From the UHGV virus genome UHGV-0119144: a DNA stretch of 18,430 bases; one strand, 5' to 3'. Positions 2,997 through 17,643 of the stretch are shown piece after piece (the first letter of the stretch is position 1; each line of letters starts with the position of its first letter). The notes below the pieces were generated by a model, which saw nothing but the letters and a program-made list of their open reading frames with translations, did not search any database and was not told the origin of the DNA. Position numbers and translations under genes: made by a program. Source of the stretch: a virus.

Positions 2997-3013
2997 ATTG
3001 CTCTAATAATTCA
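2997..3013 (+). promoter_or_regulatory. P1 C1-repressor operator-like site (14/17 to ATTGCTCTAATAAATTT)
   Basis: attgctctaataattca immediately after the stop at 2993-2995. Confidence 0.55.
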
Positions 3014-3045: not shown

Positions 3046-3062
3046 TTTTTTATTAGAGCAAT
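3046..3062 (-). promoter_or_regulatory. P1 C1 operator-like site in inverted orientation (14/17)
   Basis: Reverse complement reads attgctctaataaaaaa; forms an inverted pair with 2997-3013 around the palindrome gtgatgtacactcatcac (3027-3044). Confidence 0.5.
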
Positions 3063-3504: not shown

Positions 3505-4008
3505 TTGAGTATTTTCAATAAACACGCACACCAGGAACGTCCGTACATCGTCATAGTAGATATTGATGGGACGATATCAGAGGCAACGGAAGACAGGCTG
3601 CATTTACTTCCACCACCTGGCAAAGGTGCATTAACAGAGCACTGGAACGAGTTTAACCTTGCCTGTGACACTGATGCTCCCATCACTCCAGTTATTGATA
3701 TGGTGCGCCAGTTGTCCGGCATTTACACCCTCTGGTTTGTAACCGGGCGCTGTGAGATAGCCAGGGATAAAACACGAGCCTGGTTGCGTAAGCACGTAAC
3801 AAATGGGGCTGAGCCTTTGCTATCTATGCGTCCTGCCACCGATGACAGAAATGACGGTCCAGCAAAGATTGATCTCCTGAAGAAAATTGGTCTAAGTAAA
3901 ATTGCGTTCGCGCTGGAAGATAAGATTGAAGTGGCGCGTGTTTTCAGGAGTCACGGCGTACTTACGTTAATGGTCAGGGAGTATGAAAATGCGCTTCTTC
4001 ATCAATAA
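3505..4008 (+). CDS. HAD-superfamily phosphatase-like protein
   Basis: TTG start 7 nt after GAGGAGG; N-terminal VIVDIDGT (HAD motif I, DxDGT). 167 aa. Confidence 0.55.
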   Translation: MSIFNKHAHQERPYIVIVDIDGTISEATEDRLHLLPPPGKGALTEHWNEFNLACDTDAPITPVIDMVRQLSGIYTLWFVTGRCEIARDKTRAWLRKHVTNGAEPLLSMRPATDDRNDGPAKIDLLKKIGLSKIAFALEDKIEVARVFRSHGVLTLMVREYENALLHQ

Positions 4009-4010
4009 TA

Positions 4011-4027
4011 ATTGCTCTAATAAATCT
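4011..4027 (+). promoter_or_regulatory. P1 C1 operator-like site (16/17)
   Basis: attgctctaataaatct directly after the stop of the HAD-like gene; best consensus match in the window. Confidence 0.65.
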
Positions 4028-4109
4028 TGATTTTTAAAGCAAAGAAAGTGAAAATAAAAACATGCCGCAAGGCGCGGCATGTATCCAATCAATCACAGGA
4101 GCTGAAAAT

Positions 4110-4196
4110 ATGAACACGGCATTCAAAATCATTATGGCCGCGATCTATTTCTGGCTGTTCTCTATCACTTTTGGCGGCATCGTCGCGCATGGGTAA
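4110..4196 (+). CDS. 28-aa hydrophobic peptide (predicted single transmembrane helix)
   Basis: ATG preceded by AGGAG (acaggagctgaaaatATG); translation MNTAFKIIMAAIYFWLFSITFGGIVAHG. Not in the ORF track because of size. Confidence 0.4.
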   Translation: MNTAFKIIMAAIYFWLFSITFGGIVAHG

Positions 4197-4230
4197 GGGG
4201 AGTATATTAGCCATTTGGAACCCCACGGTC

Positions 4231-4260
4231 TCTTGCGGGTTTAATTAAGAACCCGCAAGA
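4231..4260. other. 11-bp perfect inverted repeat (stem-loop) between convergent genes
   Basis: tcttgcgggtt ... aacccgcaaga with palindromic loop ttaattaa; T-run upstream and A-run downstream, so not a canonical terminator on either strand. Confidence 0.4.
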
Positions 4261-4275
4261 AAAACACGAATTGGG

Positions 4276-7200
4276 CTATATTTTTCCGCCTACGTCTTTA
4301 AACTTCTCAATAAACGAGACGATTTTCTGGAAAACTGCCTGTTTTTTCGTTTTATATTGCGGATTTAACGGACTAAGTTTTGGTAATGTTTCGTTTAATT
4401 CTGTGCCATTTTCGGTGGCATATTTGCGTTTTAAAGATGTGCGAATATAGCGTTTTGCTGCATCTTCATTGAGATTTTCTTCTTTAATCAACGCTTCTGC
4501 TTCACGTAGCTGTTCGTGTTGAGCAAAGGTAAAGAACGCGTCAATGATGCTGGCTTTGTCTGGTAAATCATCCAGGTTCGTTTGCTGAATAAAATCGACC
4601 ACCAGGCCCTCTTTCGCCCGGTTCCCCAGGCTTGAACGAATTAAGCGTTTGACCTCTTCGATCATTTCGCCCTTGCCTTTATTTTGTCTGTTATGTTCGA
4701 AAATCAGTCCAAGGATATAATCCAGGTTTATTTCCTGAGATTTCAGCAAATCGACCTCAAAAACTACGTCATCCCAGTCAGTGGTTGATTTCTCTTTTTT
4801 CTCAGCTTCTTTCTCACGGCGCTGCCAGTCGCGAATATCGTTATAGGCAGAACGATAATCCTGAATCTTGCGATCAGCAGGGAGACGAATTGTTTGCAAT
4901 TCAGCGAACTTTTCATCATCCACATAATGTTCTGCTTTGAATTTTTCTACCGCAACAGGATCGCTAAGATCGATTTGTTGCAGGGCTTTTAGCGTGGCAA
5001 ATTCATCATAGTTTTGCAGGATGTTCTCGGCACGCAGGTATTCGCCAAACAGTTTAACGAAGTCTTTCTTCTCTTTTTCACTTTCAATACTGGCAGGGTC
5101 AGGGAACCGTTGTTCCAGTTCTGAAACTACTGTCATGAAGCCGCGTTTAGCTTCACCTGTAGCAGCATCAGTAAAGCCTTCCATATACTCTGTATAACTC
5201 TTTTCTAACACCACATTTTTGGTGTTTTTGTCACCAAACAGCGTTATGGCATCAATAGTTGAGCGTTCCAGATCCCGGAAAGTGACGATATTACCGAAGG
5301 TTTTAGTTGCATCATAAATACGGTTGGTGCGGGAAAATGCCTGCATCAGGCCGTGAAAACGCAAGTTTTTATCGACGAATAGCGTGTTCAATGTTGGAGC
5401 ATCGAAGCCGGTTAAAAACATCCCCACGACAATTAGCAGATCGATATCCTGATTTTTAACCCGCTGGGCTAAATCACGATAGTAGTTCTGAAAACCGTTA
5501 CTGTCGGTGCTAAAGTTAGTTTTAAAATGGCTGTTATATTCACGAATTGCAGCGTCCAGAAACTCTTTAGCACTGCTGTCCATTGCGCTGGTATCAAAAG
5601 TTTCATCGGAAATTTCACCAATGGCATTTTGTTCTTCATTGGCGGCAAAGGAGAAGATTGTCGCAATACGCAGCGGTTTATAGGTAGCCGATTTATTAGC
5701 GGCTTCTTCTTGTAACCGTTTAAACGTCGCATAATAGGCTTTCGCGGCATCCACGCTGCTCACTGCCAGCATGGCATTAAAGCCTTTGGAGCCTGGGAAG
5801 GTACGGTGGGTTTTCTGGCGGAAGTTGTTCAGGATATATTGCGTGATTTCCTGAATACGCATGGGATGAAGAAACGCCTGCTGATTTTCAGCCGCACTTA
5901 GTTTTTTCTCGTCAGTTTCTGTCTCTAAAGACTTAAACTGTGGCCGCACATCGTTGTAGTCTACCTTGAATTTGAGCACTTTTTCGTCACGAATCGCATC
6001 GGTAATTACATACGAATGCAATTCACGACCAAATACGCTGGCGGTTGTTTCTGAGCCTAAGGCGTTTTCCGGGAAAATAGGGGTGCCGGTAAAACCAAAC
6101 TGATAATAGCGTTTGAATTTCTTCTTCAGGTTTTTCTGCGCTTCTCCAAACTGGCTGCGGTGGCATTCATCAAATATAAACACCACTTGCTGATTATATA
6201 CAGGCAGGTCGCTTTCTGCTTTCATCAGGTTATTGAGTTTCTGAATAGTGGTGACGATAATTTTGTTATCGTCCTTATCCAGATTTCGTTTAAGACCTGC
6301 GGTATTTTCCGAGCCGTTGACGCTGTCTGGCGAAAAACGCTGGTATTCCTTCATGGTCTGGTAATCGAGGTCTTTCCTGTCGACCACGAAGAAGACTTTA
6401 TCAATAAAGTCCAGTTCTGTTGCCAGACGCGCGGCTTTAAAGCTGGTCAGTGTTTTACCAGAACCGGTAGTGTGCCAGATAAAGCCACCGCTTTCGGGGT
6501 TAGACCAGTTTTTCGCTTTATAGGAGCTGTTGATTTTCCATAAGATTCGTTCGGTGGCGGCAATCTGGTACGGTCGCATCACCAGTAGCGTCTGACTACT
6601 GTCAAAAACGCTGTAGTTCACCAGAACATTCAGCAGAGTATGTTTCTGGAAAAAGGTAGCGGTAAAGTCTTTGAGGTCTTTAATCAGCGTGTTGTCTGAT
6701 TTCGCCCAATTCATGGTGAAGTCAAAACTGTTTTTATCGCGCTTTGTCGTGTTGGCAAAATAACGGGTATCGGTGCCGTTAGAAATGACAAACAGTTGCA
6801 GATACTTAAACAGGGAATTTTCGCTGTTAAAACTCTCTTTACTGTAACGATGTATCTGGTTGAAAGCCTCACGAATCGCCACCCCGCGTTTTTTTAGTTC
6901 GATTTGCACCAGCGGTAAACCATTAACCAGGATCGTGACGTCATAACGGTTAGCATGAGAACCCGTCTGTTCAAACTGCTGGATAATCTGCACCTTATTG
7001 CGCATGAGATTCTTTTTATCTATCAAATAGATGTTCTCAAGACGCTCGTCATCAAAAATAAAGTCGCAAATATAGTCGATATGGATTTTACGGGTCTTAT
7101 CCAGAATGCCATCACTCGGGTTGTCCAGATACTGCTCCGTGAAACGCCGCCATTCGCTGTCATTAAACACCACACCATTGAGGTTCTGAAGCTGTTCCCG

Positions 7201-7392
7201 AACGTTGGCCAGCATCGCCGACTGTGATTTTACGGGTATAAATTCATAGCCCTGATTTCGCAGGTCCTGAATCAGTTCCCGTTCCAGGTCCGATTCACTC
7301 TGATAGCTGTCGCCTGTTGGCTCAGCTTTGATGTACTTATCAAGAACGATAAAGTTATTGGATTCAGCAATGGTGTGTGTCTGATGAGTCAT
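4276..7392 (-). CDS. hsdR: Type I restriction enzyme R subunit (HsdR), type IC / EcoR124 family
   Basis: 1038 aa; PD-(D/E)xK nuclease motif ([18 protein letters not shown]), helicase motifs TGSGKT and FDECH; N-terminus [14 protein letters not shown] as in EcoR124-type HsdR. Confidence 0.95.
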
Positions 7393-7513
7393 AGCGCATC
7401 CTTTGTGCCGTCTGGCAAGGGCCGGAAGGGAGTTAAGGGCGACTTCCGGCGTGTAGAAAATAGTCTATATACTGACCGGATGTTAAGGTGGTCCGGTCTG
7501 TAAAAATGCTCAA

Positions 7514-8727
<1,214 letters not shown>

Positions 8728-8731
<4 letters not shown>

Positions 8732-10290
8732 TTCTGCACCTCGCAGCCTTCAATTTCAGCCACAATCGCATCAATATCTTTACGCAACTGGTCGATTTTG
8801 CTGACCGTGGTTTTCAGCTCTGCATTCAACTCAGCGATATTGATAATTTCGCGAGTATCTTTCGCTTCCACATAGCTGCTTACCGACAGGTTATAGTCAT
8901 TAGCGACAACGGCCTCAAACGTGACAGATTTTGCCAGATGAGCAACATCTTCCTTGCTGGAAAATACCTGCATAATCTGTTCGATATGGGCATCAGTCAG
9001 GATGTTGTTATTAGTCTCTTTTTTGAATAGCTCGCTGGCGTCAATAAACTGAACGTTGGTATCGGTTTTATGTTTAGACAGCACCAGAATATTGACGGCA
9101 ATGGTGGTGCCAAAGAACAGATTCGGTGCCAGTGAAATCACGGTTTCGACATAGTTATTGTCGACCAGATACTGACGGATTTTCTGCTCCGCACCGCCAC
9201 GGTAAAAAATACCCGGGAAGCAAACAATCGCAGCACGACCTTTGGCAGAAAGATAGTTCAGCGCATGTAATACAAACGCAAAGTCAGCTTTGGATTTGGG
9301 GGCCAGAACGCCAGCCGGGGCAAAACGTTCATCGTTAATCAGCGTCGGGTCATCGCTGCCAATCCATTTCACCGAATACGGCGGGTTAGAAACGATGGCA
9401 TCAAACGGTTTTTCATCTCTGAAGTGCGGTTCAGTCAGCGTATTGCCCAGCTTGATATCAAACTTGTCGTAGTTGATGTTGTGCAAAAACATGTTCATAC
9501 GCGCCAGGTTATAGGTCGTATGGTTGATTTCCTGACCAAAAAAACCTTCTTCGATGATATGGTCATCAAACTGTTTTTTAGCCTGCAACAACAGCGAACC
9601 GGAGCCTGCTGCCGGGTCGTAGATTTTGTTAACGTGGGTCTGCCCGTGCATAGCCAGTTGTGCAATCAGCTTAGAGACGTGCTGCGGTGTAAAGAACTCG
9701 CCGCCTGACTTACCGGCATTTGCCGCATAGTTAGAGATCAGGAACTCATAGGCATCACCGAACAGGTCAATCTGATGTTCGTTGAAGTCACCAAGTTTTA
9801 ACCCTTCAACCCCTTTCAGAACCGCAGCCAGGCGGGCATTTTTATCTTTAACGGTGTTACCCAGGCGGTTACTGGTGGTATCGAAATCAGCAAACAAACC
9901 TTTGATGTCTGCTTCTGAAGGGTAGCCGTAAGCAGAACTTTCGATAGCAACGAAGATGCTGTTTAAATCTGCGTTCAGTCTGTCATTGGTATTTGCTTTC
10001 GCAGCTACGTTGCAGAAAAGCTGACTTGGGTAGATGAAGTAGCCTTTGGTTTTGATGGCATCGTCTTTAATGTCATCAGTAATTACGCTGTCATCCAGTT
10101 TCGCATAACAGATGCTGTCATCACCGGCTTCAATATAGCTGGAAAAATTTTCGCTGATAAAACGGTAGAAAAGCGCGCCCAGAACGTATTGCTTAAAATC
10201 CCATCCATCGACCGAACCTCTGACATCGTTAGCAATTTGCCAGATTTGACGATGAAGCTCTGCACGTTGTTGAATACTTGTCATTTTCAT
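8728..10290 (-). CDS. hsdM: Type I N6-adenine DNA methyltransferase subunit (HsdM), type IC
   Basis: 520 aa; SAM-binding motif [10 protein letters not shown] and catalytic NPPY. Confidence 0.95.
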
Positions 10291-10466: not shown

Positions 10467-10688
10467 ATGCAATCCATTAACTTCCGTACCGCGCGCGGCA
10501 ACCTTTCTGAAGTGCTCAACAATGTTGAGGCCGGGGAAGAGGTTGAAATCACCCGCAGAGGCCGTGAGCCAGCAGTAATTGTCAGCAAGGCTACTTTTGA
10601 AGCCTACAAAAAAGCGGCGCTGGATGCTGAATTTGCATCCCTGTTTGACACCCTGGACTCCACCAACAAGGAACTGGTTAACCGATAA
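10467..10688 (+). CDS. phd: Phd antitoxin (Phd/YefM family), P1-type
   Basis: 73 aa, [49 protein letters not shown]; stop overlaps the doc start (TAATG). Confidence 0.95.
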
Positions 10689-11068
10689 TGAGGCATATAT
10701 CACCGGAAGAACTTATTGCGCTTCATGATGCGAATATAAACCGCTACGGCGGCCTGCCGGGAATGTCTGATCCGGGTAGGGCAGAGGCCATTATCGGGAG
10801 AGTTCAGGCCAGAGTTGCCTACGAAGAGATCACCGACCTTTTCGAAGTCTCCGCCACCTACCTGGTGGCTACGGCGAGAGGGCATATATTCAATGATGCC
10901 AATAAGCGTACCGCGCTAAACAGTGCGCTGCTATTTCTACGCCGTAACGGGGTGCAGGTATTTGATTCACCTGAACTGGCAGACCTTACTGTAGGCGCTG
11001 CGACTGGCGAGATATCTGTATCTTCTGTCGCCGACACGTTACGTAGATTGTATGGTTCTGCGGAGTAG
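10688..11068 (+). CDS. doc: Doc toxin (Fic-fold kinase), P1-type
   Basis: 126 aa with Fic motif HIFNDANKR. Confidence 0.95.
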
Positions 11069-12324: not shown

Positions 12325-12341
12325 ATTGCTCTAATGTATTG
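12325..12341 (+). promoter_or_regulatory. P1 C1 operator-like site (14/17), with an overlapping partial repeat ATTGCTAT
   Basis: attgctctaatgtattg immediately after the stop at 12321-12323; followed by inverted repeat gattag/ctaatc around TTGACA (12376-12398). Confidence 0.5.
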
Positions 12342-14959: not shown

Positions 14960-14976
14960 CTTGCTCTAATAAATTG
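14960..14976 (+). promoter_or_regulatory. P1 C1 operator-like site (15/17), Op51-like position upstream of immI
   Basis: cttgctctaataaattg, 4 nt after the terminase stop. Confidence 0.55.
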
Positions 14977-17626: not shown

Positions 17627-17643
17627 AGATTTATTAGTGCATT
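17627..17643 (-). promoter_or_regulatory. C1 operator-like site (14/17) in the coi-c1 intergenic region (Op99-like)
   Basis: Reverse complement aatgcactaataaatct; an adjacent overlapping partial repeat follows. Confidence 0.5.

Follow-up and report, generated by a model that had tools for sequence, protein, structure and literature searches.

Phage P1 is one of the classical models, and about one complete Escherichia coli genome in ten contains a P1-like phage-plasmid, often one with resistance genes. The defined operators of the P1 repressor C1 are few; one of them, OpmgT (formerly Op88), is given in the P1 record (NC_005856, positions 84293-84337) together with two predicted sigma-70 promoters, P1pmgT and P2pmgT, which run rightward into pmgT. 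Control through a C1 operator is also found at kilA, an early gene with an opposing transcript (PaskilA; P53/P53as). Small membrane proteins are common in phage early operons. TisB and DinQ, the LexA-repressed small membrane toxins of type I toxin-antitoxin systems, consist of a single hydrophobic helix of fewer than 30 residues. What kind of gene, then, stands directly behind OpmgT, and how closely does it resemble any of these?

The locus examined here lies in a window of 18,430 nt (the whole stretch of DNA that was analysed, UHGV virus genome UHGV-0119144) that represents a P1-like phage-plasmid, the region around the small ORF matching P1-group phages at 94-99% identity; some 1000 plasmid records, chiefly from Escherichia, match the ORF region in the same range. 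Compared with OpmgT of P1, the operator is identical, it occupies the same place after pap, and it is followed by the same promoter, hairpin, Shine-Dalgarno (SD) sequence and 28-codon ORF (98% identity over 4000-4200). Whereas in P1 the ORF is followed after 9 nt by pmgT-pmgU-pmgV and onward, homology in the window stops at 4200 and gives way to a convergent hsdR of the EcoR124 type. The window ORF resembles TisB and DinQ in having a promoter under repressor control and a product of fewer than 30 residues with a single hydrophobic helix; unlike them, it has no antisense or small-RNA partner and no SD-sequestering leader, and it has no sequence similarity to either. As for kilA, the hsdR transcript of the window could oppose the small ORF in a comparable way, albeit as an accident of cassette insertion, and no dedicated antisense promoter is seen. 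The features of the locus are as follows.

3505..4008, + strand: pap (3'-phosphatase/5'-polynucleotide kinase), last gene of the upstream pmgR-pmgS-pap block
4011..4027, + strand: C1 repressor operator OpmgT (former Op88), 16/17 to the consensus and identical to the annotated site of P1
4027..4055, + strand: predicted sigma-70 promoter P1pmgT, annotated as predicted in NC_005856 and conserved across lineages
4060..4082, no strand assigned: hairpin 1, a 9-bp G+C-rich stem with a 5-nt loop, at about the predicted 5' end of the transcript
4085..4102, + strand: conserved leader box CCAATCAATCACAGGAGC with the SD sequence AGGAG (4097-4101), near-invariant across lineages
4110..4196, + strand: small ORF of 28 aa with a single hydrophobic helix, short form of a small membrane protein family restricted to P1-like elements
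4200..4201, no strand assigned: module junction, where homology to P1/P7/SJ46 stops, four bases past the stop of the small ORF
4231..4260, no strand assigned: hairpin 2, an 11-12-bp perfect palindrome in the 3' flank of the hsd cassette, 16 nt past the hsdR stop
4276..7392, - strand: hsdR, convergent on the small ORF, essentially the HsdR of EcoR124I (type IC; full-length match to 2w00_A, 2280 bits)
4402..4432, + strand: terminator-like site (hairpin plus T-run) in the hsdR coding region, antisense to it and about 200 nt past the small ORF

The 17-bp operator lies directly 3' of pap in both the P1 reference record and the window, whose Pap is 97-98% identical to that of the P1-group phages RCS47, JL22 and phi456 and 94.5% identical to that of reference P1. 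The pap stop of the window (TAA, 4006-4008) comes one codon before that of P1, in which the same codon is CAA, so that the window carries a tandem TAA TAA; the last base of the P1 stop is at the same time the first base of the operator. Two diverged P1-like contigs (L175 and L176) have no pap at all, and in them the unit of operator, promoter, hairpin and small ORF stands directly after pmgS.

The operator itself reads ATTGCTCTAATAAATCT at 4011-4027 and is an asymmetric site that matches the C1 consensus ATTGCTCTAATAAATTT at 16 of its 17 positions. Six operator-like sites were found in the window, compared with 0.11 expected by chance and with none of 200 shuffles reaching six, and the site at 4011-4027 is the best of them, just as the original prediction had it; it corresponds to the annotated OpmgT/Op88 of P1, which P7 also shares. 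The pattern ATTG[CT]TCTAATAAAT[AC]T is kept in all nine lineages aligned. The five remaining sites, with two to three mismatches each, lie at 2997-3013 (+), 3046-3062 (-), 12325-12341 (+), 14960-14976 (+) and 17627-17643 (-); the first two flank the start of pmgR and correspond to OpmgR/Op86 of P1, and the last adjoins coi/c1. Overlapping the operator is P1pmgT, with a -35 element (TTGATT, 4027-4032) that abuts the operator, a spacer of 17 nt and a -10 element (GAAAAT, 4050-4055). In the aligned lineages the -35 element begins at the last base of the operator and reads TTGATT or TTGTTT in eight of nine, being degenerate in L176; the 17-nt spacer is common to all nine, the A at the second position of the -10 element is invariant, and the T at its sixth position is kept in eight. 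A generic promoter scan did not flag P1pmgT because its -10 element is weak. Judged by its sequence and position, the site is a genuine, previously annotated C1 operator that overlaps a conserved, predicted sigma-70 promoter; binding and repression by C1 at OpmgT are taken from the annotation of former Op88 in the P1 record.

Between promoter and ORF, the same order of elements (operator, -35, spacer, -10, hairpin, A-rich spacer, box and ATG) recurs in the nine aligned lineages, with a distance of 82-88 nt from operator to ATG. The more distant members of this set are Cronobacter phage JK004, whose Pap is 72% identical, and P1-like contigs of up to ~94 kb from public sequencing runs. Hairpin 1, CATGCCGC-AAGGC-GCGGCATG, had been described as an 8-bp stem-loop at 4061-4081; it is present there and can be extended to 9 bp (4060-4082), with folding z-scores of -3.2 (+ strand) and -3.9 (- strand). 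A hairpin occupies this position in every lineage, and its stem exists in four or more versions of unrelated sequence. These hairpins do not stay in register from one major lineage to the next, and an alignment of the hairpin alone was therefore used in place of one of the whole leader; for the latter, RNAalifold had proposed only a trivial pairing of operator and SD sequence, with no covariation. Across seven loci of the 53-aa type described below, 79% of the cells in the hairpin-only alignment are paired, as against 21-47% when the partner strand is slid, and five of the eleven pairs change on both sides. The covariation score was reached by one of 500 shuffles, a count that is not to be read as a probability, as only seven related sequences enter it. 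On this comparative evidence, hairpin 1 is a conserved part of the operator-small ORF unit, maintained by what appear to be compensatory changes between lineages.

On which strand does this hairpin act? Wobble pairs give a mixed answer, with L169 and L176 favouring the + strand and JK004, L173 and L174 favouring the - strand. On the minus strand, with TTTTTATTTTC behind it, the hairpin scores as a terminator, on that strand only and in the P1 lineage only. The T-run mirrors the A-rich -10 region on the opposite strand and is missing in the other lineages; the conserved role of the hairpin is hence read as that of a stem-loop which would stand at the 5' end of the operator-controlled mRNA. An Rfam scan returned only a sub-threshold match to GcvB on the minus strand (20 bits, compared with a gathering score of 42), which coincides with hairpin 1 and the T-run of the terminator-like site.

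Downstream of the hairpin, the box CCAATCA(ATCA)C-N-GGAGC (CCAATCAC-GGAGC) is near-invariant in lineages whose coding regions differ by ~45%, and its GGAG stands 5-8 nt ahead of the ATG in all of them. To judge from this alignment, the box is conserved beyond the need of an SD sequence alone. The window contains no second copy of it. The C4 antisense RNA of P1 was considered as a trans-acting regulator of the box and set aside, there being no a or b target sites in the leader and the energy of the C4 RNA-leader duplex being no better than with shuffled leaders. In the predicted fold of the leader, the SD sequence is essentially open and the 5' hairpin is separate from it.

The ORF that this leader serves extends from ATG 4110, behind AGGAG at 4097-4101, to TAA 4194-4196, and its product would be MNTAFKIIMAAIYFWLFSITFGGIVAHG, with a best 19-residue Kyte-Doolittle window of 2.1. 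An AGGAG-led reading frame of 28 codons for a single-helix membrane peptide had been proposed from the letters alone; it is present and belongs to a gene family, for which AlphaFold2 and hydropathy both predict one helix. Conservation across related elements had been put forward as a way of checking the proposal. Of 83 informative close relatives, 81 have the undamaged 28-aa reading frame, the frame is kept in orthologues of 53 aa, and the full unit is found in 564 of 5,426 complete E. coli genomes. Among P1-group alleles there are ~16 variable sites (~10 nonsynonymous, 6 synonymous), too little variation to show selection. Over the first 24 codons the window differs from the 53-aa clade at 16-17, 5-6 and 11-14 sites at codon positions 1, 2 and 3, respectively, and a spared second position is the pattern expected for a hydrophobic helix under selection. 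These comparisons make it very likely that the ORF is a real gene. With its 28 aa, it represents the short variant of a family of small membrane proteins that is limited to P1-like elements. Several elements (L059, L072, P0007, P0013, P0019, P0020, P0031 and P0032) have the ORF disrupted or fused, either at codons 18-20 or at its stop, and the ORF is therefore dispensable. Six of these alleles (L059, L072, P0007, P0020, P0031 and P0032) share a recurrent second breakpoint at codons 18-20 (~4167), where the helix is fused to unrelated sequence.

How could such a gene have gone largely unnoticed? The original prediction held it to be too short for standard annotation, which is only partly so. 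It is indeed unannotated in reference P1 and in all but two of 25 sampled RefSeq E. coli records, so that the reference annotation of P1 misses a conserved gene directly behind a defined C1 operator; elsewhere, by contrast, many records give the same frame at the same locus as a 'membrane protein' or hypothetical protein of 44 aa (SJ46 J46_0098, AMR60016.1; phi456 Orf75; WP_001426503.1), an entry seen on more than 1000 contigs. The 44-aa entries start at ATG 4062, which lies inside the hairpin stem, has no SD sequence and falls at or before the predicted start of the transcript. No other lineage has an in-frame ATG upstream, and the extension is not conserved outside the P1 lineage; among the possible starts, only ATG 4110 is shared by all lineages. 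The 44-aa annotation thus probably uses the wrong start codon, and the comparison corrects a widespread annotation from 44 aa to 28 aa. A literature search found neither the peptide nor its sequence in any of the papers covered. The OpmgT/Op88 operator is already known, and the peptide gene is conserved but uncharacterised.

The 53-aa form occupies the same position in P1-like elements of Salmonella, Enterobacter and Cronobacter (e.g. WP_310836399.1 and Cronobacter phage JK004, region 64589-64750), and database entries for the 53-aa proteins name Salmonella enterica and Enterobacter hormaechei as well. It shares the synteny, the regulatory layout and a homologous N-terminal helix with the window; its N-terminal 23 residues align without gaps (MNTAFKIIMAAIYFWLFSITF in the window, MQVLIKLAVTAFFVWLFSVAV in the 53-aa form), and M1, K6, A11 and W15 are invariant across the family. 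In contrast to the window form, which ends after the helix, it continues into a hydrophilic tail of ~30 residues, of which TSFKPDANM...SYDCDQQ is among the most conserved blocks. AlphaFold2, run on the alignment of the 53-aa family, predicts one helix over residues 2-23 (block-mean pLDDT 86 and 91 over residues 1-20) and gives low confidence to the tail. The median dN/dS of the 53-aa clade is 0.29 (21 pairs), as against 0.91 and 1.15 in shifted frames; together with the conserved tail, this shows that selection acts on the protein in that clade. Purifying selection was measured on the 53-aa clade, and for the 28-aa form itself the evidence is the codon-position pattern described above.

In all 53-aa loci, the stop of the small gene overlaps the start of the next (ATGA). 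The overlapping gene (L169 4159-4473 and equivalents) encodes a 104-aa protein with a match to MarR/TrmB-type winged-helix proteins (E = 2e-6), lying just above the Pfam MarR_2 cut-off in one locus, and it may be a regulator that is co-expressed with the membrane protein. The family is restricted to P1-like elements: when 1.84 billion representative proteins were searched exhaustively with an HMM, only its own members came back, and word-indexed searches with the 44-aa form, the 53-aa form and the alignment found nothing outside the small-protein family. Pfam, PHROGs, NCBIfam and PADLOC gave no significant match to the small protein. IMG/VR and PLSDB contained only P1-group loci, and a scan of one genome per species with a Pap profile found two loci only, both of the E. 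coli type.

Downstream of the small ORF, the loci part ways. In P1, P7 and SJ46 the ATG of pmgT/upf86.8 stands 9 nt after the stop, and in P1 the SD sequence of pmgT (GGGGGA) lies directly past it. Among 84 related loci there are two main junctions, namely TAAGGGGGATGC-ATG of the pmgT/upf86.8 type in 55 and the hsd flank in 25, including the window. In phi456, which is arranged like the window, an inverted hsd cassette comes after pap and the small ORF, with phd-doc directly behind it; the cassette has thus replaced the stretch from pmgT to humD of P1, an accessory operon whose loss leaves the small gene monocistronic in the window. The pap-lxr interval to which all this belongs is a published variable region (PMC6906374, PMC9603915). 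In the window the hsdR-hsdS-hsdM cassette, inverted and of the EcoR124 type (type IC), occupies 4276-10290 on the minus strand and is directly followed by phd/doc (10467-11068); its HsdR is near-identical to the crystallised EcoR124I subunit (2w00). The original prediction further placed the small ORF between two strong hairpins, as one unit. The palindrome ahead of the convergent hsdR end is there, with arms TCTTGCGGGTT and AACCCGCAAGA at 4231-4241 and 4250-4260 (11-12 bp; z = -3.5; no U-tract on either strand), as is that hsdR end itself. The notion that both hairpins flank a single unit does not hold, since the palindrome lies beyond the breakpoint at 4200, is missing in P1, P7 and SJ46 and travels with hsdR in IncF plasmids, all of which assigns it to the hsd cassette.

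Taken together, these features make it probable that P1-like phage-plasmids have an early operon under OpmgT/Op88, repressed by C1, in which the small ORF is the promoter-proximal gene. From the conserved operator, promoter, hairpin, box and frame, all of them observed or annotated, we infer the start of transcription, translation and membrane insertion in the following way. In the prophage-plasmid state, C1 bound to the 17-bp operator abutting the -35 element would hold the promoter off. Upon infection or induction, RNA polymerase would start ~7 nt past the -10 element (~4062), at or just inside the hairpin, which would then form a 5'-terminal stem-loop; the strong, exposed SD sequence in the CCAATCAC-GGAGC box would drive translation from ATG 4110, and the 28-aa product would insert into the inner membrane as one hydrophobic helix. 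In relatives, the next cistron is close by (the ATGA overlap, or the 9-nt gap in P1), and the small gene would therefore head a variable accessory operon. In the window, where no + strand cistron follows the ORF, the transcript would run on through the palindrome and into the 3' end of hsdR, antisense to that gene. The terminator-like site at 4402-4432 is a possible end of this operator-controlled transcript and may be a chance occurrence (two such sites were found, 0.8 +/- 1.1 expected). As to what the peptide does, the safest commitment on present comparisons would be to a non-essential early membrane protein. With its conserved leader hairpin and unusually conserved ribosome-binding box, the small gene offers a cheap, well-defined target for small-protein work.

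Could the 28-codon ORF instead be a C-terminally truncated, functionless remnant of an ancestral 53-aa gene, its DNA kept for the operator, the promoter, the leader and the SD sequence of the downstream gene, and in the window a stump orphaned by the hsd replacement? The conserved tail of the 53-aa form is missing from the P1-type form, with no remnant of it in the window, P1 or P7, so that a truncated remnant is conceivable; truncated and fused alleles occur, the variable sites of the P1 group lean towards nonsynonymous change, and 25 loci in hsd context hold seven protein variants compared with three in 55 loci in pmgT context. This last contrast is, however, not statistically significant, and the loci are not independent. 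Moreover, start, SD sequence and frame have been kept, and second codon positions spared, although the helix-coding part differs from the 53-aa clade at ~47% of its nucleotides; 81 of 83 loci are free of frameshifts and internal stops, while at least two indel variants are seen in the leader, which is noncoding and shorter. We thus regard decay of this kind as unlikely. That translation of the short ORF might serve only to deliver ribosomes to the next cistron, by coupling or reinitiation and with the sequence of the peptide being irrelevant, is suggested by the ATGA overlap shared by all 53-aa loci and by the placing of the pmgT SD sequence and ATG right behind the ORF in P1; it is hard to reconcile with the protein-level selection evident in the 53-aa clade (dN/dS and conserved tail) or with the intact ORF in 25 hsd-context loci that have no downstream cistron, and appears highly improbable.

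The original prediction had seen in this arrangement the architecture of small toxic or lysis-modulating peptides. On this reading the product would be a repressor-controlled membrane toxin or lysis modulator, comparable to TisB and DinQ or to peptides of the holin/antiholin type, and would depolarise or permeabilise the membrane once repression by C1 ends. Its size, its single hydrophobic helix and its repressor-controlled promoter would all fit, antisense control does occur in P1 at another killing gene under C1 (kilA, through PaskilA), and the terminator-like minus-strand hairpin of the P1 lineage, upstream of the SD sequence, could end an antisense RNA or the hsdR transcript. Nothing observed at the locus supports such a role directly, though. 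No promoter-like site was found on the minus strand in 3800-4500, the SD sequence is unsequestered in the predicted leader fold, and the terminator look, being limited to the P1 lineage, is explained by the A-rich -10 region. Neither did Pfam, PHROGs, NCBIfam or PADLOC return a toxin, holin or defence family, with no PHROG or Pfam match below E = 0.05, holin families included; Rfam returned no antitoxin RNA, and C4 RNA has no target in the leader. The lysis genes of P1 lie elsewhere, the neighbours here are pap and hsdR (pmgT in P1), and the promoter is an early, not a late one. Finally, an acidic hydrophilic tail like that of the 53-aa relatives is not known from small hydrophobic toxins. By analogy with known toxins such a function is thus conceivable, yet quite unlikely. 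A broader proposal would see in the peptide, as in its 53-aa relatives, an early effector that is repressed by C1 and acts on the membrane (e.g. depolarising, host-takeover or defence-modulating), with its mRNA protected by the conserved 5' stem-loop and, on hsd plasmids, with a transcript antisense to hsdR that lowers restriction during lytic growth; we consider it very improbable in this form.

The promoter-proximal gene of the OpmgT/Op88 operon has also left a trace beyond P1-like elements. Plasmid records that match the region fall into three classes: those matching over the full length with hsdR adjacent (P1-like, 258 records), those matching 4000-4200 only (P1-like plasmids without the hsd cassette) and those matching 4117-4270 only (chiefly conjugative plasmids). 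According to the P1 record, identical sequence lies downstream of the EcoDXXI hsd locus and, in R124/3, of hsdR. In an IncF plasmid (L171; NZ_LS992186.1, 1749-2660), IS1 abuts what is position 4117 of the window and hsdR follows, so that the hsd cassette carries a stub of the P1 small ORF, its last 80 nt. As these 80 nt of the small gene came along, the arrangement suggests a P1-like plasmid as the source from which IS1 captured the hsd cassette of conjugative plasmids, IncF plasmids among them.
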